64,000 nucleotides of DNA from assembly GCF_041248615.1 (NCBI RefSeq), contig NZ_CP158426.1. One strand, 5' to 3'. This DNA is from Escherichia coli (GTDB taxonomy: Bacteria > Pseudomonadota > Gammaproteobacteria > Enterobacterales > Enterobacteriaceae). The position numbers and the translations under genes are program-made. The notes under the pieces were generated by a model that worked only from the letters and a program-made list of their open reading frames with translations, had not been told where the DNA came from and did not search any database. Shown here piece after piece: positions 1,356-52,654 of the stretch (within the stretch, counting starts at the first letter, position 1; each line of letters starts with the position of its first letter).

Positions 1356-2264
1356 CTAATTCTGCTGTAAAAAGTGCAGAAACTGACTTAAAGCATAAGA
1401 AGGCGTTTCGTTATTGCGCCAGAACACACCGACGCTGCCTTTCTGTTCTATCTTTGGCAGGTTGAGGATCACCAGTTGTCCCTGGCTGGCATAACGTTGC
1501 GCCAGGCGTAATGACAAAATAGAGATCATATCGCTGCTTTGTAACAGGTTGGTACTGACGTTCATCGACGCCGACTCAATCGTGTTTTCTGGCAGCATCA
1601 CGCCGTGGTCTACCAGCGCATTATCAATACTGATGCGAATGGGGGTACCTGTCGGCCAGACTATCCACCGCCAGTTAGCAAGATCATTCCAACTGAGGGT
1701 GGCGTATTTCGCCAGTGGATGCTCAGCACGGGCGACAAAACACACCGGCTCGGTGTAGAGCACCTTATAATTCAGTGGCAGCTGCAAGGCGCGACCGCCA
1801 ATTCGCCCAACGACCACGTCGACAGAACCTGCCAACAGATCTTGCAGCAATGGGGTCATAACCTTCTCTTCAATATTCAGGTGTAGAGTTGGCATCTCCT
1901 TGAGCAAATGCAAAATCGCCTGGGATACGCAGTCAGTGGCGACGGGAGAACAGCCAATTTTCAGACTGCCGACCAGCCCACCTTGTTTAAAACGGGCCAG
2001 TTCATGTTGCGAGCGCTCCATGTCATTGATTAACCGCTGGGCATGTTGCAATAACAATCTACCGCCTTCGGTAGGGCGTAACCCTTTGCTGTGCCGCTCA
2101 AAGAGTGTGAGGCCGATCTCATCTTCGAGTTGTGACAACCATTTCGACAGCGCAGGCTGGGTGATATTCATCATCCGCGCGACATGGGTCAGATTGCCCT
2201 GTTCACCCAGCGCCACCAGCATTTGCAGGTGATGAAGCTTTAGTTTCTGCGCCCAGTTTGCCAT
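1356..2264 (-). CDS. mhbR: LysR-family transcriptional regulator, divergent from the catabolic operon (MhbR-like)
   Basis: N-terminal HTH (LKLHHLQMLVALGEQGNLTHVARMMNITQPALSKWL) followed by a LysR substrate-binding domain; divergent to the transporter gene; start set at Met17 of the ORF. Confidence 0.75.
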   Translation of the reverse strand: MANWAQKLKLHHLQMLVALGEQGNLTHVARMMNITQPALSKWLSQLEDEIGLTLFERHSKGLRPTEGGRLLLQHAQRLINDMERSQHELARFKQGGLVGSLKIGCSPVATDCVSQAILHLLKEMPTLHLNIEEKVMTPLLQDLLAGSVDVVVGRIGGRALQLPLNYKVLYTEPVCFVARAEHPLAKYATLSWNDLANWRWIVWPTGTPIRISIDNALVDHGVMLPENTIESASMNVSTNLLQSSDMISILSLRLAQRYASQGQLVILNLPKIEQKGSVGVFWRNNETPSYALSQFLHFLQQN

Positions 2265-2390
2265 TTGCCATAACCTCCAGGTTATCTCTCTGCCCGAAAT
2301 GCCATTGTACATTTCATCTCTTTAATCACAATATCGCAACATACATAAAACAAAAGAAACATCTACCTTACCTGCACTGAGGCATTTACT

Positions 2391-3749
2391 ATGACTCAAC
2401 GACGTGATTTACAAGCACTGATCGATGCTGCTCCGGTCGGCAAGATGCAGTGGCGCGTTATCATCTGCTGTTTTCTGGTGGTAATGCTCGATGGTTTAGA
2501 CACCGCGGCTATCGGCTTTATCGCCCCTGATATTCGCACTCACTGGCAACTCACCGCAGGCGATCTCGCCCCGCTTTTTGGCGCGGGTCTGCTGGGGTTA
2601 ACCGCAGGCGCACTGCTTTGTGGTCCGTTGTCCGATCGCTTTGGCCGCAAACGGGTGATTGAGCTGTGCGTCTTTTTGTTTGGCGCGTTAAGCCTCGCCT
2701 CGGCTTTCTCACCGGATCTGCAAACGCTGGTATTCCTGCGTTTCCTCACCGGCCTTGGGCTGGGTGGCGCGATGCCAAACACAATTACCATGACCTCGGA
2801 ATATCTGCCTGCCCGCCGCCGCGGCGCGCTGGTGACGCTGATGTTTTGCGGCTTTACCCTGGGTTCGGCGTTTGGCGGGATTGTCAGCGCGCAGCTGGTG
2901 CCGGTGATTGGCTGGCACGGGATCCTGGTGTTGGGTGGCGTATTACCGCTGATGCTGTTTGTTGCACTGCTGGTGGTTCTGCCGGAATCGCCACGCTGGC
3001 AAGTGCGCCGCCAGCTACCCCGGGCGGTGATTGCGAAAACCGTCAGCGCCATCACCCGCGAGCGTTATGTCGATACCCACTTTTATCTCATTGAATCAGC
3101 CTCCGTTACAAAAGGCAGCATTCGTCAACTGTTTATGGGGCGTCAGTTACCCATCACGTTGATGCTGTGGGTGGTGTTCTTTATGAGCTTGCTGATTATT
3201 TACCTGCTCTCAAGCTGGATGCCAACGCTGCTCAACCATCGCGGCATCGACCTGCAACATGCCTCCTGGGTTACCGCCGCGTTCCAGATTGGCGGTACGT
3301 TGGGCGCGCTGGCGCTGGGCGTGCTGATGGATAAGTTCAATCCTTTCCGCGTACTGGCGCTGAGCTATGCCATAGGCGCTGTATGCATCGTGATGATTGG
3401 CTTAAGCCAGGACGGATTATGGCTAATGGCGCTGGCGATTTTCGGCACCGGCATTGGCATCAGCGGATCGCAGGTGGGGCTGAATGCGCTGACCGCAACA
3501 CTTTATCCAACACAAAGTCGCGCCACGGGCGTGAGCTGGTCAAACGCCGTGGGCCGCTGCGGCGCGATTGTTGGCTCGCTGTCTGGCGGCGTGATGATGG
3601 CGATGAATTTCTCTTTCGACACCCTGTTTTTCATTATCGCTGTGCCCGCGGCGATCAGTGCGGTGATGTTAACCCTGCTGATCACCGTGGTTCGCCAGTC
3701 GACCTCTGTCCCTGACTCACTGCCTCACGCAGGTGTTGTGAACGAATAA
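2391..3749 (+). CDS. mhbT: MFS aromatic-acid transporter (3-hydroxybenzoate/gentisate type)
   Basis: 452 aa, about 12 TM segments, MFS signature motifs (GRKR after TM2); first gene of the catabolic operon. Confidence 0.8.
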
Positions 3750-3760
3750 GGAGCATCCCA

Positions 3761-4789
3761 ATGACTGATAACAATCAAAATAGCCGCGAGCAATTTTATC
3801 AGCATATTTCCGGGCAAAACCTGACCCCGCTGTGGGAGTCACTGCACCATCTGGTGCCAAAAACGCCCAACGCTAACTGTGCGCCAGCGTACTGGAATTA
3901 TCAGGAGATCCGCCCGCTGCTGCTGGAGAGCGGCAGCCTGATTGGCGCGAAAGAAGCCGTGCGCCGCGTGCTGGTGCTGGAAAACCCGGCGCTGCGCGGG
4001 CAGTCTTCCATCACCGCGACTTTATATGCCGGTTTGCAACTGATCATGCCGGGCGAAGTGGCACCGAGTCATCGCCATAACCAGTCGGCGCTGCGTTTTA
4101 TTGTTGAAGGTAAAGGGGCATTCACCGCCGTTGATGGCGAACGCACGCCAATGAATGAGGGCGATTTTATCCTGACTCCGCAGTGGCGCTGGCACGATCA
4201 CGGTAACCCTGGCGACGAACCGGTTATCTGGCTCGATGGGCTGGATCTGCCATTAGTGAACACTCTGGGCTGCGGTTTTGCCGAAGATTACCCGGAGGAG
4301 CAACAACCAGTAACGCGTAAAGAGGGCGATTACCTGCCGCGTTACGCTGCCAATATGTTGCCGCTGCGCCATCAGACCGGGAACTCCTCGCCCATCTTTA
4401 ACTACCGTTATGACCGTAGCCGCGAAGTGCTACACGATTTAACCCGCCTGGGCGATGCCGATGAGTGGGATGGCTACAAAATGCGCTACGTCAACCCGGT
4501 CACCGGTGGCTATCCGATGCCGTCGATGGGCGCTTTCCTGCAACTGCTGCCGAAAGGGTTTGCCTCACGCGTGGCGCGTACCACTGACAGCACCATCTAC
4601 CATGTAGTGGAAGGTAGCGGGCAGGTCACTATCGGCAATGAAACCTTCAGCTTTAGTGCAAAAGATATCTTCGTGGTGCCGACCTGGCACGGCGTGTCGT
4701 TCCAGACCACGCAAGATACCGTTTTATTTAGTTTTTCGGACAGACCGGTACAAGAAGCCCTGGGGCTGTTCCGCGAAGCGCGTTATTAA
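3761..4789 (+). CDS. mhbD: gentisate 1,2-dioxygenase (bicupin)
   Basis: 342 aa; cupin metal-binding His motifs ([11 protein letters not shown]...WHDHGN); operon context with fumarylpyruvate hydrolase and maleylpyruvate isomerase. Confidence 0.85.
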
Positions 4790-4804
4790 TTTGGGAGAGA
4801 GAAA

Positions 4805-5506
4805 ATGACTCAATACGTATTCGAACCACAAGCGCCCGTTACCGTACCGGTTGTTGGCAGTGATGAACAATTCCCCGTACGCCGCGTTTACTGCGTCGGA
4901 CGTAACTATGCCGCCCACGCCCGCGAAATGGGCTTTGATCCGGATCGTGAACCGCCATTCTTCTTCTGCAAACCGGCGGATGCCGTTGTTCCGGTTGCCG
5001 CTGGCGAAACGCTGGCGCTGCCGTATCCGGCGCAGACCGATAACTACCATTATGAAATTGAACTGGTGGTGGCGATTGGTAAAAAAGGCAGTGATATCCC
5101 GCTGGAAAACGCCCATGAATATGTCTGGGGTTATGCCACGGGTCTTGATATGACTCGCCGTGACCGTCAAATGGAAATGCGCCAGATGGGCCGCCCGTGG
5201 GAAATCGGCAAAGCGTTCGATCTCTCGGCCCCCATCGCGCCGCTGCACAAAGCCAGCGAAACTGGCGGTATTGATAACGCACCTATCTGGTTACAGGTTA
5301 ACGGCGAAGATCATCAGCGCAGCGATATTCGTCATCTCATCTGGTCAGTGAATGAAACCATCAGCTACCTGTCAGGCTTCTTTGAACTGCAACCGGGCGA
5401 TCTAATCTTTACCGGTACGCCGGAAGGGGTTGGCCCAGTAGTCAAAGGTGATGTGATCACGGGCAACGTCGAGGGCTTAACGCCTATCGCGGTGAAGATT
5501 GTCTGA
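4805..5506 (+). CDS. mhbH: fumarylpyruvate hydrolase (FAH family)
   Basis: 233 aa FAH-fold protein ([16 protein letters not shown]...GTPEGVG); position in gentisate operon. Confidence 0.8.
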
Positions 5507-5513
5507 GGTGATG

Positions 5514-6158
5514 ATGAAGCTGTACAGTTTTTTTAATAGTTCAGCGTCTTACCGGGTGCGCATTGCGCTGGCGCTGAAGGGTATCGATTACCAGACCGAA
5601 GGGGTGAATATCCGCATTGGTCAGCAAAACGAACTGGCCTACCGGCGGATGAATCCGGTCGGGCTGGTGCCGACGCTGCTGACCGACGAGGGCGAATCAC
5701 TCGGACAATCGCTGGCGATTATTGACTGGCTGGAGAGTCACTACCCGCAAGTTCCGCTGATGCCGCAGGAAGAACCGGCCCGCAACAAGGTGCTGGAAAT
5801 TGTCTATGCCATCGCCTGCGATATTCATCCATTGAATAACCTACGCGTGCTGCGCTACCTGACCGAAGAGCTGAACGTCAGTGAAGAAGATAAAAAACGC
5901 TGGTATGCGCACTGGATCCAGCAAGGGTTAAGCGCGGTGGAACAGCTACTGCGCCAGAGCCAGTCGGGGCAATTTTGTGTGGGCGAGACGCCGACGCTGG
6001 CAGATTGCTGCCTTGTTCCACAGTGGGCGAACGCGCTACGTATGAACTGCGATCTGAGCGGGTATCCGCGCTGCAAAGCGGTGTACGACGCCTGCACGCA
6101 GCTGCCAGCGTTCATTGCCGCAGCGCCAGAAAATCAACAAGATAAAATTTCAGCCTGA
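5514..6158 (+). CDS. mhbI: maleylpyruvate isomerase (glutathione S-transferase zeta-like)
   Basis: GST N-terminal thioredoxin-like fold (MKLYSFFNSSASYRVRIALALKGIDY); ORF begins at 5499 and overlaps the preceding gene, so start set at MKLYSF. Confidence 0.8.
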   Translation: MKLYSFFNSSASYRVRIALALKGIDYQTEGVNIRIGQQNELAYRRMNPVGLVPTLLTDEGESLGQSLAIIDWLESHYPQVPLMPQEEPARNKVLEIVYAIACDIHPLNNLRVLRYLTEELNVSEEDKKRWYAHWIQQGLSAVEQLLRQSQSGQFCVGETPTLADCCLVPQWANALRMNCDLSGYPRCKAVYDACTQLPAFIAAAPENQQDKISA

Positions 6159-6172
6159 CCAGGAGAACCATA

Positions 6173-7366
6173 ATGACTAAAGTGACACGCGCAGTAATTG
6201 TGGGAGGCGGGATCGGCGGTGCGGCAACTGCGTTGTCACTGGCCCGCCAGGGGATCAAAGTGGTGCTGCTGGAAAAGGCGCATGAGATCGGTGAGATTGG
6301 CGCAGGTATCCAGTTGGGGCCAAATGCGTTTTCGGCGTTGGATAGCCTCGGCGTCGGCGAAATCGCCCGCCAGCGCGCGGTATTCACCGATCACATCACC
6401 ATGATGGATGCGGTAAACGCCGAAGAAGTGGTGCGCATTGAAACCGGTCAGGCCTTTCGCGATCATTTCGGCGGCCCTTACGCGGTGATCCACCGGGTTG
6501 ATATTCACGCCTCGGTGTGGGAAGCGGTACTGACGCATCCGGACGTGGAATATCACACCTCCACCAACGTCGTGGATATTCGCGAGACAGAAGACGATGT
6601 CACCGTTTTCGACGATCGCGGCAATAGTTGGATCGGCGATATTCTGATTGGCTGTGACGGCGTGAAGTCAGTGGTGCGCCAGAGCTTATTGGGCGATGCG
6701 CCGCGTGTCACCGGGCATGTGGTCTACCGTGCGGTTATCGATTGTGCCGATATGCCGGAAGATTTGCGCATTAACGCACCAGTATTGTGGGCGGGGCCGT
6801 GCTGTCACTTGGTGCATTACCCTTTACGCGGCGGCAAGCAGTATAACCTGGTGGTGACATTCCACAGCCGCCAGCAGGAAGAGTGGGGCGTGAAGGATGG
6901 CAGTAAAGAGGAAGTGCTCTCTTACTTTGAAGGGATTCACCCCCGTCCGCGCCAGATGCTGGATAAACCGACCTCCTGGCGACGCTGGTCAACCGCCGAC
7001 CGTGAACCGGTAGCGAAGTGGGGAACGAAGCGCATTACGCTGGTGGGCGATGCGGCCCATCCGGTGGCGCAGTATATGGCGCAGGGTGCCTGTATGGCGC
7101 TGGAAGACGCGGTAACACTGGGTAAGGCGCTGGCGCAGTGTGAGGGTGATGCGGCACAAGCCTTTGCGCTGTATGAGTCGGTACGTATTCCGCGCACCGC
7201 GCGCATCGTCTGGTCGACCCGTGAAATGGGGCGGGTTTATCATGCCGCAGGAGTAGAGCGCCAGGTACGTAACCTGCTGTGGAAAGGGAAATCGCAGGCA
7301 GAGTTTTACCGCGGCATGGAGTGGCTGTACGGCTGGAAAGAAGATAACTGTTTGCAACCACGCTGA
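6173..7366 (+). CDS. mhbM: 3-hydroxybenzoate 6-hydroxylase (FAD-dependent monooxygenase)
   Basis: 397 aa; FAD-binding GxGxxG ([14 protein letters not shown]) and DG / GD flavoprotein monooxygenase motifs (GCDGVKS, GDAAH). Confidence 0.85.
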
Positions 7367-7427: not shown

Positions 7428-8375
7428 ATGCGTGTGTTACTGGCACCGATGGAGGGAGTGCTTGACTCTCTGGTGCGTGAATTGCTGACCGAAGTTAACG
7501 ACTACGATCTGTGCATCACCGAGTTTGTCCGCGTGGTGGATCAACTGCTGCCGTTAAAAGTCTTTCATCGCATTTGCCCTGAGCTACAAAACGCCAGCCG
7601 GACACCATCTGGTACGCTGGTGCGCGTGCAGTTGTTAGGTCAGTTCCCACAATGGCTGGCAGAGAACGCCGCCCGTGCGGTGGAGTTAGGTTCCTGGGGC
7701 GTGGATCTCAATTGCGGCTGCCCGTCGAAAACGGTCAACGGTAGCGGTGGTGGGGCGACGTTACTCAAAGATCCTGAACTCATCTACCAGGGTGCAAAAG
7801 CGATGCGTGAAGCTGTACCGGCGCATTTGCCCGTCAGCGTGAAAGTGCGTCTGGGCTGGGACAGCGGTGAGAAGAAATTTGAAATCGCCGATGCGGTTCA
7901 ACAGGCTGGTGCTACGGAGCTGGTGGTGCATGGACGGACAAAAGAGCAGGGTTACCGCGCGGAGCATATTGACTGGCAGGCGATTGGCGAGATTCGCCAG
8001 CGGCTGAATATTCCGGTGATTGCCAACGGTGAAATCTGGGACTGGCAGAGTGCGCAACAATGTATGGCGATCAGCGGCTGCGACGCAGTGATGATTGGTC
8101 GCGGGGCGCTCAATATTCCCAACCTGAGCCGGGTGGTAAAATATAACGAACCGCGAATGCCGTGGCCGGAGGTGGTTGCTTTGCTGCAAAAATATACCCG
8201 TCTGGAAAAGCAGGGCGATACCGGGTTATATCACGTTGCGCGGATTAAACAGTGGTTGAGTTATTTGCGTAAAGAATACGATGAAGCAACGGAATTATTT
8301 CAGCATGTTCGGGTGTTGAATAATTCCCCTGATATTGCAAGGGCTATTCAGGCAATTGATATCGAGAAACTCTAA
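7428..8375 (+). CDS. dusC: tRNA-dihydrouridine(16) synthase C
   Basis: ORF 7380-8375; start set at [13 protein letters not shown] giving 315 aa; Dus TIM-barrel motifs; matches recalled DusC. Confidence 0.9.
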
Positions 8376-8416
8376 AAAACCATAGTGATGTTTTTTGACA
8401 ATGTGTTAGCTCTTTA

Positions 8417-8677
8417 TCAATAGGCCGCACGGTTGTTTGGTGGCGTCAAAATTGCCGAGGCGTTCCCTGAAGGCCGGGGCAGCCCACATGGATGTGGGCT
8501 GAGGGCGCGTTTTACAGGGATGTTACCTCGCGCCCGACCCGGTAGCCGTAAGGGATAAGCCGAGGGCACCGCGCAGCGGCGATTTTGTTCGCCAGAGCCC
8601 GGGGGTGCAGGGGGCGGCGGCGATTGGCCGCCCCCTGCGCGCTCCTTGCGCCAGTGATTATATGAAGCAATACACAT
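8417..8677. repeat. GC-rich palindromic intergenic element (not classic REP consensus)
   Basis: about 260 bp of very high GC with several perfect hairpins (CAGCCCACAT/ATGTGGGCTG; GCAGGGGGCGGC/GCCGCCCCCTGC); the 86-aa ORF on the minus strand is low-complexity Pro/Gly/Arg-rich and is probably not coding. Confidence 0.45.
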
Positions 8678-8747
8678 GACAGGAGCGCAACAGGATGAGA
8701 GACTGAAATATTCTCGTTATTTTCGGACCTGATGACATTAATTAATT

Positions 8748-8831
8748 TTAAAATATCATCTTAAATACGCCAGTCACCACCAGTAGCCCAATCAGGAAAA
8801 TAATCAATACAGCCCAGAGTATAATTTTCAT
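8748..8831 (-). CDS. yohP: 27-aa small membrane protein
   Basis: manual translation of the minus strand gives MKIILWAVLIIFLIGLLVVTGVFKMIF, identical to recalled YohP; below the ORF-track size cutoff. Confidence 0.85.
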   Translation of the reverse strand: MKIILWAVLIIFLIGLLVVTGVFKMIF

Positions 8832-9054
8832 TGGCGTTCCTTTATTTGTGAGTGCTGAATAAGTATAGGAAAAAACGAAGCCCTTTGCCGTTATCCATAA
8901 ACGATTAAGATAAATCGGAAGATATCATTCACTTAGTGTATATTTTTCTGGATATGTCGTTTTATTGCTACTGATGTATTGCCACGCGAAACTAAAAAAT
9001 ATATCGCAACACACGGTAATCTCCGCGCACCTTTTCTTACCTGATTATTCCCCC

Positions 9055-10491
9055 ATGAATCGTGATTCCTTTTATCCCGCCATCGCCTGTTTTCCGCTGT
9101 TACTGATGCTGGCCGGGTGTGCGCCTATGCATGAAACCCGCCAGGCGTTAAGCCAGCAAACGCCCGCTGCACAAGTTGACACCGCATTACCCACGGCGCT
9201 GAAAAATGGTTGGCCAGACAGCCAATGGTGGCTGGAGTATCACGATAATCAACTCACTTCCTTAATTAACAATGCACTACAGAACGCACCGGATATGCAG
9301 GTGGCTGAACAGCGCATTCAGCTAGCTGAAGCCCAGGCGAAGGCAATTGCTACTCAGGATGGTCCGCAGATCGACTTTTCTGCGGATATGGAGCGGCAAA
9401 AAATGTCGGCAGAAGGCTTAATGGGGCCGTTTGCTCTGAACGATCCGGCCGCAGGTACGACCGGTCCGTGGTACACCAACGGTACTTTTGGCTTAACGGT
9501 GGGCTGGCATCTCGATATCTGGGGAAAGAATCGGGCGGAGGTAACTGCTCGCCTGGGTACGGTTAAAGCACGAGCGGCGGAACGCGAGCAAACCCGCCAA
9601 TTGCTGGCTGGCAGCGTAGCCCGCCTGTACTGGGAGTGGCAGACCCAGGCGGCGTTAAACACGGTCTTGCAGCAAATCGAAAAAGAGCAGAACACTATTA
9701 TCGCGACCGATCGCCAGCTATATCAGAACGGGATTACTTCTTCAGTTGAAGGTGTGGAAACCGATATTAATGCCAGCAAAACCCGGCAGCAGCTCGACGA
9801 TGTCGCGGGGAAAATGAAAATTATTGAGGCACGGTTAAGCGCACTTACAAATCACCAGACAAAGGCATTGAAGCTTAATCCGGTCGCGTTGCCGAAAGTG
9901 GCAAGCCAGCTTCCTGATGAACTGGGGTACTCCTTACTGGCGCGGCGGGCAGATTTGCAGGCGGCGCACTGGTACGTTGAGTCATCGTTAAGCACTATTG
10001 ATGCGGCAAAAGCGGCATTTTATCCTGACATCAACCTGATGGCCTTCCTGCAACAGGATGCGTTGCACTTAAGCGATCTGTTCCGTCATTCCGCGCAGCA
10101 AATGGGCGTTACGGCAGGCCTGACGCTACCCATTTTCGATAGTGGTCGTCTTAACGCCAACCTCGATATCGCAAAAGCCGAAAGCAACTTGTCTATCGCC
10201 AGCTACAACAAAGCGGTGGTTGAAGCGGTGAATGACGTGGCGCGGGCAGCCAGTCAGGTTCAGACACTGGCGGAGAAAAACCAGCATCAGGCGCAAATTG
10301 AGCGCGATGCCTTGCGTGTAGTAGGTCTTGCGCAGGCGCGCTTTAACGCGGGCATCATTGCGGGTTCCCGCGTCAGCGAAGCCAGAATCCCCGCGCTGCG
10401 TGAGCGGGCCAATGGCCTGTTATTGCAAGGGCAGTGGCTGGATGCCTCCATTCAACTCACTGGTGCGTTGGGCGGGGGTTACAAACGTTGA
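9055..10491 (+). CDS. mdtQ: outer-membrane efflux lipoprotein (OMF/NodT family)
   Basis: ORF 8965-10491; start set at MNRDSF..., giving a lipobox LLMLAGC and 478 aa; OMF coiled-coil / beta-barrel architecture; intact single ORF. Confidence 0.8.
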   Translation: MNRDSFYPAIACFPLLLMLAGCAPMHETRQALSQQTPAAQVDTALPTALKNGWPDSQWWLEYHDNQLTSLINNALQNAPDMQVAEQRIQLAEAQAKAIATQDGPQIDFSADMERQKMSAEGLMGPFALNDPAAGTTGPWYTNGTFGLTVGWHLDIWGKNRAEVTARLGTVKARAAEREQTRQLLAGSVARLYWEWQTQAALNTVLQQIEKEQNTIIATDRQLYQNGITSSVEGVETDINASKTRQQLDDVAGKMKIIEARLSALTNHQTKALKLNPVALPKVASQLPDELGYSLLARRADLQAAHWYVESSLSTIDAAKAAFYPDINLMAFLQQDALHLSDLFRHSAQQMGVTAGLTLPIFDSGRLNANLDIAKAESNLSIASYNKAVVEAVNDVARAASQVQTLAEKNQHQAQIERDALRVVGLAQARFNAGIIAGSRVSEARIPALRERANGLLLQGQWLDASIQLTGALGGGYKR

Positions 10492-11334: not shown

Positions 11335-11420
11335 GTTAGGCCAGATAAGACACCAGCGTCGCATCAGGCATGGAACACCCGGTGCCGGATGTGGCGTGAA
11401 TGCTTATCTGTGGCAACTGC
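11335..11420. repeat. pair of REP elements (BIME-like) between convergent yohF and yohD
   Basis: one copy is the reverse complement of TGCCTGATGCGACGCTGGTGTCTTATCTGGCC; a second REP-like copy GCCGGATGTGGCGTGAATGCTTATCTGTGGC in opposite orientation. Confidence 0.7.
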
Positions 11421-12757: not shown

Positions 12758-12930
12758 AAAGTTCTTTTGTGTTGCATTGCTGGCGTAAATGTCAGCAATG
12801 CAGCATTTCCTCACGATTCTCCTTTGACGATCGCACTTTTTGCTCGTTATGATGGCGTCGCTAGCCTCAGTAAATCCTTACTCCGGCGGTGCGCAACCCG
12901 TGCGCGTGAACCACTATCTGAATGCTCATC

Positions 12931-33146: not shown

Positions 33147-33576
33147 ATATTCATCCCTGAAATGTATTAATGAAATAAACGATATTTTACGCGCAATAAA
33201 TGTTTGGCGCATTAGTTGTTTGAGCGAAAAATATCTGGAAAGCAGATCACAGTAAATAAAAAAACCTGCTGGTGAGGCAGGTTCTTTTATTTACTACAGT
33301 GACGCTAACTTGCTGATTGTGCAACATTTCGTACCAACGAATAAATTATAACCATATCCACACTCCATTGCAATTCAGTGAATGAGATTTATAATCCTGC
33401 CCGTTGGGAGGTTGTGCCGGATCGGACCAATTTTAAGTCCTGGCTGCTGGACGGGTGGTGCCGCAGGCGGTGCCCTGATCCGGAGAGCAACGTTTCGTAC
33501 CAACATACGTAAACCAGTATCGACAGGCAGTGTAAGGGTAAGGTGCTGGTGTTGCGCTCCTTAATAAGGAGAGCGG

Positions 33577-52519: not shown

Positions 52520-52600
52520 AACCAAACGACTCGGGGTGCCCTTCTGCGTGAAGGCTGAGAAATACCCGTATCACCTGATCTGGATAATGCCAGCGTAGGT
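52520..52600 (+). ncRNA. TPP riboswitch aptamer (thi-box) of the thiM leader
   Basis: AACCAAACGACTCGGGGTGCCCTTCTGCGTGAAGGCTGAGAAATACCCGTATCACCTGATCTGGATAATGCCAGCGTAGG matches the recalled E. coli thiM TPP aptamer; similarity ends at about 52600. Confidence 0.85.
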
Positions 52601-52654
52601 TGCCAACATTCTGATTAGTATTCATGTGGTTACATTTCTTTTTGTCCGTGTGTA

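Follow-up and report, generated by a model that had tools for sequence, protein, structure and literature searches.

The GC-rich element located between dusC and yohP in the 64,000-nucleotide stretch of Escherichia coli DNA that was analysed (the window; contig NZ_CP158426.1 of assembly GCF_041248615.1) is, with near certainty from its sequence, TRIP1c, the dusC(yohI)-yohP copy of the Escherichia TRIP1 repeat family. The explanation that best accounts for the results as a whole, with a probability of about 0.6, is that TRIP1c would act as a folded RNA of its + strand; that this RNA may serve as a CsrA-binding module is the more tentative part of it. The element is already known and named, being a catalogued repeat of K-12. 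The new information is the covariation support for its fold, the strand that is likely to act, the resemblance to TwoAYGGAY RNA and a set of extra TRIP1 loci.

Over 301 nt TRIP1c shares 99.7% identity with the element found at the same locus in K-12, and its identity to K-12 TRIP1a is 93.8%. Of 5426 complete E. coli genomes, 5425 have matches to the region 8400–8700 (megablast), at a median of three places and a maximum of eight per genome, the upper figure being 8–10 when the more sensitive search described below is counted as well; the 64-kb window holds a single TRIP1 copy. The sequence-only reading had proposed both a search for additional copies and a comparison with the K-12 dusC-yohP spacer, and these are the results they yielded. 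Its suggestion of an uncharacterized intergenic repeat family is right for the dispersed and intergenic character of the repeat and wrong for its novelty, as the element had been named TRIP1c (Rudd 1999; PMC10888264). Another of its suggestions, a remnant of a small insertion, is wrong as regards a strain-specific one because K-12 carries the element in the same place with the identity given above. TRIP1 was named by Rudd in 1999 from three K-12 copies, TRIP1a, TRIP1b and TRIP1c (via PMC10888264). Li et al. (2024) surveyed the repeat in 6725 genomes, defined types a to e, predicted GC-rich “double-Y” folds, reported no function and found that both orientations occur at the TRIP1a and TRIP1c loci (PMC10888264). 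The published TRIP1c has 273 bp and lies 43–44 bp past the yohI (dusC) stop codon in the dusC/yohI-yohP-mdtQ/yohG spacer (PMC10888264). Its placement in the window fits this description, with dusC ending at 8375, homology among copies starting at ~8419–8424 and yohP followed by mdtQ.

The upstream gene dusC (7429–8375, + strand) is co-oriented with the strand of TRIP1c that carries the GGA loops, while yohP (8748–8831, - strand), coding a small membrane protein, is convergent with dusC and has mdtQ and yohF next to it. In 100-nt windows the GC content of the spacer is 0.64–0.73 at 8450–8699 against 0.34–0.40 in both flanks. The alignment of copies delimits TRIP1c to ~8424–8693, that is ~270 bp. 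The initial description of about 260 bp of strikingly high GC with perfect inverted repeats is confirmed: repeats of 12 nt (8607–8618/8627–8638), 10 nt (8480–8489/8492–8501) and 8 nt (8639–8646/8681–8688) are 100% complementary. They are accompanied by a long-range inverted pair of 16 nt with 81% complementarity (8447–8462/8572–8587) and by an internal direct repeat that is 72% identical (8462–8479/8587–8604). The span of 8417–8677 initially given to the element does cover a GC-rich element, but it is exactly the span of an 86-aa Pro/Gly-rich ORF on the - strand; since the element reaches ~8693, the right end of this span leaves out the last helix's 3' arm (8681–8688). No sigma-70-like promoter was predicted beside TRIP1c in a promoter scan. 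No intrinsic terminator, in the sense of a GC-rich hairpin with a U tract after it, was found on either strand between 8250 and 9100, hairpin H3 (see below) being followed by GCGCUCC, and the same scan found no terminator-like site between the dusC stop codon and the element.

The predicted minimum free energy of the TRIP1c + strand is -143.8 kcal/mol (z -4.9), which is 10.7 kcal/mol below that of the - strand (-133.1 kcal/mol, z -5.5); on each strand 0 of 200 dinucleotide-preserving shuffles reached as low a value. The consensus fold computed with RNAalifold from 10 full-length copies of 8 loci has 74 pairs in 14 helices. The 5' domain (8437–8595, + strand), which is TwoAYGGAY-like, is supported by the match to Rfam RF01731 and by RNAalifold helices with compensatory changes. 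Its nested closing helices (8437–8441/8591–8595, 8447–8454/8580–8587, 8455–8461/8559–8565, 8464–8468/8551–8555 and 8472–8478/8538–8547) enclose two hairpins. Hairpin A (8480–8501) has a 9-bp GC-rich stem (CAGCCCACA/UGUGGGCUG) within the perfect inverted repeat of 10 nt and the apical sequence ACAUGGAUGU (8486–8495) with its GGA at 8490–8492. Most copies have CCCAC/GUGGG in this stem; those at alx and proX have CGCGC/GCGCG instead, with compensatory change at three pairs. Hairpin B (8503–8535) has the stem GGGCGCG/CGCGCCC and the apical sequence UUACAGGGAUGUUA, with the loop motif ACAGGGAUGU at 8514–8523 and its GGA at 8518–8520. A small hairpin inside the closing helix (CCGC-GCA-GCGG, 8569–8579) is invariant and therefore uninformative about structure. 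The 3' domain is formed by two hairpins of the + strand. H3 (8607–8638) pairs GCAGGGGGCGGC with GCCGCCCCCUGC, the perfect 12-nt inverted repeat, around the conserved loop GGCGAUUG; its stem shows CGGC/GCCG versus AGGA/UCCU in the B2-type TRIP1c and is compensatory also in the yegH and proX copies. H4 (8639–8688) pairs GCGCUCCU with AGGAGCGC around a variable 34-nt loop and has four of eight pairs compensatory, with CGCUCCU/AGGAGCG giving way to CGUUCAC/GUGAACG in copies from yegH-asmA and proX. Note that in the latter version the Shine-Dalgarno-like AGGAG is gone and pairing is retained.

Over the 10-copy alignment 97.4% of the cells are paired. Pairs with both sides changed amount to 21, compared to 10.8 ± 2.1 after shuffling (0 of 500 shuffles as high), figures that are not to be read as probabilities because the 10 sequences are few and related and the shuffle control carries no correction for shared ancestry. 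When the 3' partners were slid by 1–3 columns just 1–4 pairs had compensatory change. The case is nevertheless convincing in view of this control and of how many distinct pairs are compensated. The proposal of a structured RNA, also made in the sequence-only reading, is a good one in the light of this covariation. Substitutions are paired across helices and do not follow silent sites, and among copies the stems vary with hardly any variation in the unpaired loops. An A-C mismatch on one strand corresponds to a G-U pair on its complement. The alignment has 49 cells with G-U pairs versus 7 with A-C mismatches on the + strand, which points to the + strand as the one that would act as RNA; this excess and the better fold of that strand favour a + strand RNA over a symmetric DNA cruciform. 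Selection has thus probably maintained TRIP1 in the form of a folded single strand, the + strand RNA being the likeliest.

Compensatory change would also be compatible with a DNA hairpin or cruciform. The alternative that TRIP1 is a palindrome at the DNA level, selfish or neutral, able to form a cruciform and without RNA function, which serves as substrate for inversions between copies, keeps a minor but real chance. Cruciform formation was suggested by Rudd (via PMC10888264), and 156 rearrangements between TRIP1 copies have been reported, including a 1.3-Mb inversion in SMS-3-5 (PMC10888264). Both strands fold well (z about -5), the orientation at a given locus flips between lineages, and signals of a promoter, a terminator, CLIP-seq and Term-seq are all absent from the scans and tables. 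A cruciform is, however, symmetric between strands, which does not agree with the G-U versus A-C count nor with the better folding of the GGA strand across a wider class of elements (see below). A pure palindrome would moreover leave its loops unconstrained, whereas those of TRIP1 hardly vary while stems change, and recombination requires sequence identity alone and no conserved structure.

A search of 1.2 kb (8000–9200) against Rfam gave a full-length match of 8433–8584 to RF01731 (TwoAYGGAY) with 30.9 bits (E=0.015). TRIP1d, the alx-sstT copy, scores 29.9 bits against the same model. By its predicted architecture TRIP1 resembles a TwoAYGGAY element to which a 3' domain has been added; Rfam's criterion does not admit it to the family, as the TRIP1c score is lower than the gathering score of 43 bits, and the two loops contribute a large share of that score. 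Loop A, AUGGAU, fits AYGGAY; loop B, AGGGAU, has G for Y at position 2, and copies carry A-GGAC or AAGGAC. A P1 stem of RF01731 type is present (8437–8441/8591–8595 and 8447–8454/8580–8587), with compensatory changes in the inner helices. The Psychromonas sequences aligned by Weinberg et al. (2010) have ACAUGGAUGU and ACAGGGACGU loops and very long P1 stems. Besides TwoAYGGAY a permissive scan of 8000–9200 gave only chance-level matches to other Rfam families, and no model reached its gathering score at the TRIP1c site.

The two-loop pattern was found elsewhere in a scan of representative genomes, in at least 120 DNA stretches and often many times per genome. The matches listed belong to Gammaproteobacteria (Vibrio, Shewanella, Parashewanella, Acinetobacter, Pseudoxanthomonas and several MAGs), Firmicutes and Lachnospiraceae, and among them the stems share no sequence and the loops are identical. 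A Parashewanella two-loop element among these matches passes the RF01731 cut-off with 47 bits. Of the 98 comparable non-Escherichia elements among the matches listed, 79 have a GGA strand with a better fold than the complementary strand. Some genomes have ~20 two-loop elements each among the matches listed, as at loci L069–L085 (MAG SB0675_bin_1) and L092–L112; their closing stems of 30–35 bp differ in sequence from copy to copy, each of them being almost perfectly complementary. Tandem arrays of ACAUGGAUGU and ACAGGGAUGU hairpins were observed in Colwellia, Thalassotalea, Alteromonadaceae and Oceanospirillales (n=11: L016, L017, L029, L056, L057, L089, L113, L117–L120). No Rfam family was detected at E≤0.01 in 8/11 of these loci scanned, and they look like unannotated CsrB-type sponge RNAs. 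A link to phages was considered and rejected: the 29 matches of viral contigs to the two-loop pattern are mostly repeated coding sequence without stems.

In the mechanism proposed, TRIP1c RNA would be transcribed together with dusC by read-through and then fold, dusC being the likely source of any transcript because it is upstream, co-oriented and separated from the element by no terminator. The long closing helices of the 5' domain would surround two hairpins presenting ACAUGGAUGU and ACAGGGAUGU, and the two GC-rich hairpins of the TRIP1-specific 3' domain may stabilise the RNA end and could block 3' exonucleases. The two GGA loops, 28 nt apart, would jointly dock one CsrA dimer, and TRIP1 RNA would be a small module that either titrates CsrA or delivers it to the preceding gene's transcript, at the 3' end. 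This docking and the role as CsrA-binding module are put forward tentatively, as a possibility that we infer from loop sequence and spacing. The CsrA SELEX consensus is RUACARGGAUGU, in which ACA and GGA are invariant and GGA is found in a hairpin loop (PMC7652899). The TRIP1c tips CCACAUGGAUGU and UUACAGGGAUGU have GGA in the hairpin loop in an ACA..GGA..GU context, near this consensus, and the apical sequence of hairpin B agrees with it at 11 of 12 positions. One CsrA dimer can span two sites 10–63 nt apart (PMC7652899), a range that includes the 28 nt between the GGAs at 8490 and 8518. The hairpins of K-12 csrB follow the same design as the TRIP1c tips (stem, CA(N)GGAUG, stem). TwoAYGGAY was proposed by Gardner and Eldai to bind CsrA on motif grounds (PMC4333381). 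SELEX ligands mostly have four or fewer stem pairs and very stable stems may hinder CsrA binding (PMC7652899); the 9-bp GC-rich stem of hairpin A may be too stable. In K-12, CsrA CLIP-seq peaks are absent from both TRIP1a and TRIP1c, the loops occur in none of the peak sequences, and dusC and ybjE are “No” in every CsrA-target column (PMC5694010). No 3' end was mapped at the K-12 TRIP1 coordinates in the Term-seq tables examined.

The REP consensus GCCKGATGCGRCGY sits in imperfect palindromic units of ~35 bp. REP/BIME was rejected as an identity for the element, the consensus being absent from 8400–8700 with up to two mismatches allowed, in agreement with the initial remark that the classic REP consensus is not matched. 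The closest genuine REPs form a pair at 11356–11397, after yohF. An element that is REP-like in function, whose stable hairpins, transcribed in either orientation as the end of the upstream gene's mRNA, protect it from 3'–5' exonucleases or separate neighbouring or convergent transcription units and whose loops play no specific role, is an unlikely alternative with several observations in its favour. Every copy examined lies 38–96 nt past a stop codon, there is no terminator between dusC and the element, convergent genes flank it at dusC/yohP and yegH/asmA, H3 with its 12 GC-only base pairs is highly stable, and a function that tolerates either orientation fits the observed flips. This explanation leaves unaccounted for the conserved loops, matching a motif that extends from Firmicutes to Gammaproteobacteria, and the strand asymmetry. 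It is also at odds with the placement of TRIP1a by Rudd beyond the apparent aqpZ terminator (via PMC10888264) and with the Term-seq result above. The DNA-palindrome and REP-like alternatives both remain live, and neither of them excludes the RNA reading.

Further TRIP1 copies are found in the aqpZ-lysO/ybjE, alx-sstT (TRIP1d) and putP-efeU spacers, and the TRIP1e locus is copA-ybaP (PMC10888264). A more sensitive search used as query a divergent E. albertii copy (L014, ~363–632). TRIP1 is full length at yegH-asmA in some E. coli (L130, 2001–2276) and in E. albertii (L014), while the K-12 yegH-asmA spacer has a fourth TRIP1-like copy that is cut down to the 3' 183 nt (L134, 7972–8154) and followed by a REP. 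Another copy is found at proX-ygaY, between proX and a gene for an MFS transporter (L133, 2001–2260), and a full-length one at putP-efeU (L132, 2001–2258), where K-12 has the deleted TRIP1b. The yegH-asmA, proX-ygaY and full-length putP-efeU copies are three additions to the five types defined in 2024. The full-length putP-efeU copy gave rise to K-12 TRIP1b by internal deletion; the end points of its 125-bp deletion fall, in the alignment row of K-12 TRIP1b, in the direct repeat 8462–8479/8587–8604, a coincidence that suggests recombination or slippage between repeat copies. The few plasmid matches of the repeat are explained by the 243-kb plasmid pEC16-AU-EG1 (L006, 2947–3085), which carries a chromosomal efeUOB-putP segment including TRIP1b. 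Outside E. coli TRIP1 itself was recovered only in E. albertii among the matches listed from representative genomes, with copies at orthologous loci across the two species.

In favour of the RNA reading, the GGA strand is in sense orientation, less than 100 nt past the stop codon, in six of the eight arrangements examined (after dusC, alx, yegH and proX, after aqpZ of O157 and after yohP of B2 strains). Against it, this strand runs antisense to the genes on either side in K-12 TRIP1a and in the putP copies. Two of the loci come after TerC-family genes (alx and yegH). In B2-type strains TRIP1c is inverted and sense with yohP (L002, 2430–2820 versus window 8360–8750). The flanks of the B2-type and K-12-type dusC-yohP regions differ throughout, including the last dusC codons, and there is no simple inversion. 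Between alx and sstT, strain 21F61 has TRIP1d and K-12 has a different repeat of CCCTCTCCC/GGGAGAGGG type (L127, 3714–4111 versus L005, 2425–3039), so that these spacers appear to be hot spots of repeat turnover. The most specific form of the proposal would make TRIP1 the branch that the widespread TwoAYGGAY class of dispersed structured RNAs has in Escherichia, a GGA-strand 3' tail of mostly transporter-gene mRNAs that binds one CsrA dimer through its two loops; it is speculative and rather doubtful as a whole.

The variability of TRIP1 raises the alternative of a decaying non-autonomous MITE-like element or insertion remnant whose hairpins are sites of a lost transposase, which is quite improbable. 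The repeat is indeed multi-copy and intergenic, varies among strains in presence, absence and orientation, has shortened or internally deleted copies (TRIP1b, K-12 yegH-asmA) and lies in spacers that host other repeats (K-12 alx-sstT versus TRIP1d), and related two-loop elements reach ~20 copies in some genomes among the matches listed. Against this, no terminal inverted repeats or target-site duplications were seen at the homology boundaries in the copy alignments, no associated transposase was seen, the loci are orthologous across E. coli and E. albertii, and compensatory change maintains the structure with no decay. Note that no target duplication, terminal inverted repeat or other insertion signature was readable in K-12 alx-sstT, which is not empty, or in the comparison of the K-12-type with the B2-type dusC-yohP. 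There is virtually no chance that the element is a protein-coding gene, as the 86-aa Pro/Gly-rich ORF (8417–8677, - strand) exists as an open frame but has no NCBIfam match, indels among copies shift the longest open frame and its strand as expected of GC-rich non-coding DNA, and substitutions follow helices; the ORF, initially noted as the only coding potential and of low complexity, is accordingly judged a meaningless product of high GC.

Other features of the window are listed for completeness. A 3-hydroxybenzoate/gentisate catabolic cluster (1356–7366) lies between yohK and dusC and codes for a LysR regulator, a PcaK-like transporter, gentisate 1,2-dioxygenase, a FAH-family hydrolase, maleylpyruvate isomerase and 3-hydroxybenzoate 6-monooxygenase. 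In K-12 yohJ/yohK adjoin dusC directly, without the cluster between them. The known RNA features are a Peptidase-S11 RNA motif (12846–12926, + strand), an OrzO-P type I antitoxin RNA (33258–33331, - strand) and a TPP riboswitch (52522–52617, + strand); no tRNA or tmRNA was found in the 64 kb.

As found, the element has little at stake, as it is a catalogued K-12 repeat that can be annotated as TRIP1c. It is modestly interesting as a known element with a functional lead: 25 years after TRIP1 was named, the question of its function gains a concrete and testable form, since compensatory change among the copies points to one strand and TRIP1 shares two GGA loops with a motif class predicted to bind CsrA. 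If the reading of TRIP1 as a CsrA-binding RNA is true, E. coli would carry up to ~8–10 previously unrecognised CsrA-docking modules and would offer an easy system for studying what TwoAYGGAY RNAs do. Differences between lineages in the presence, orientation and integrity of TRIP1 would then tie local mRNAs, or the pool of free CsrA, to strain-specific repeat content, and polymorphisms of presence and orientation would be candidates for strain differences in post-transcriptional control.

Compared with known systems, TRIP1c is closest to its K-12 counterpart, with which it shares locus, ~270 bp length, GC content and the predicted “double-Y” fold and from which it has no difference at the locus. 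TRIP1 is like REP/BIME elements in being GC-rich, extragenic, palindromic and repeated, in lying just past stop codons and in being a substrate of rearrangements. REP/BIME elements differ, however, in forming clusters of 35-bp units with hundreds of copies, whereas TRIP1 is one composite structure of 270 bp with fewer than 10 copies, a conserved loop sequence and no REP consensus. The CsrA-sequestering RNAs (CsrB/CsrC/McaS, RsmX/Y/Z) share with the predicted TRIP1c RNA the GGA in hairpin loops, the CA(N)GGAUG context and a two-site spacing suited to one dimer. TRIP1c departs from them in having no recognisable promoter or terminator of its own, no K-12 CLIP-seq peak and a much longer hairpin A stem, and csrB has 22 GGA motifs against two exposed predicted sites in TRIP1c. 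From TwoAYGGAY RNAs TRIP1c differs by its GC-rich stems, by the extra nested helices between P1 and the hairpins and by a ~95-nt 3' domain of two hairpins that is absent from the Rfam model. It shares with them two adjacent hairpins with A(Y/R)GGAY terminal loops, a long closing P1 stem and a multi-copy intergenic distribution, and its loops ACAUGGAUGU and ACAGGGAYGU are identical to those of Psychromonas members.
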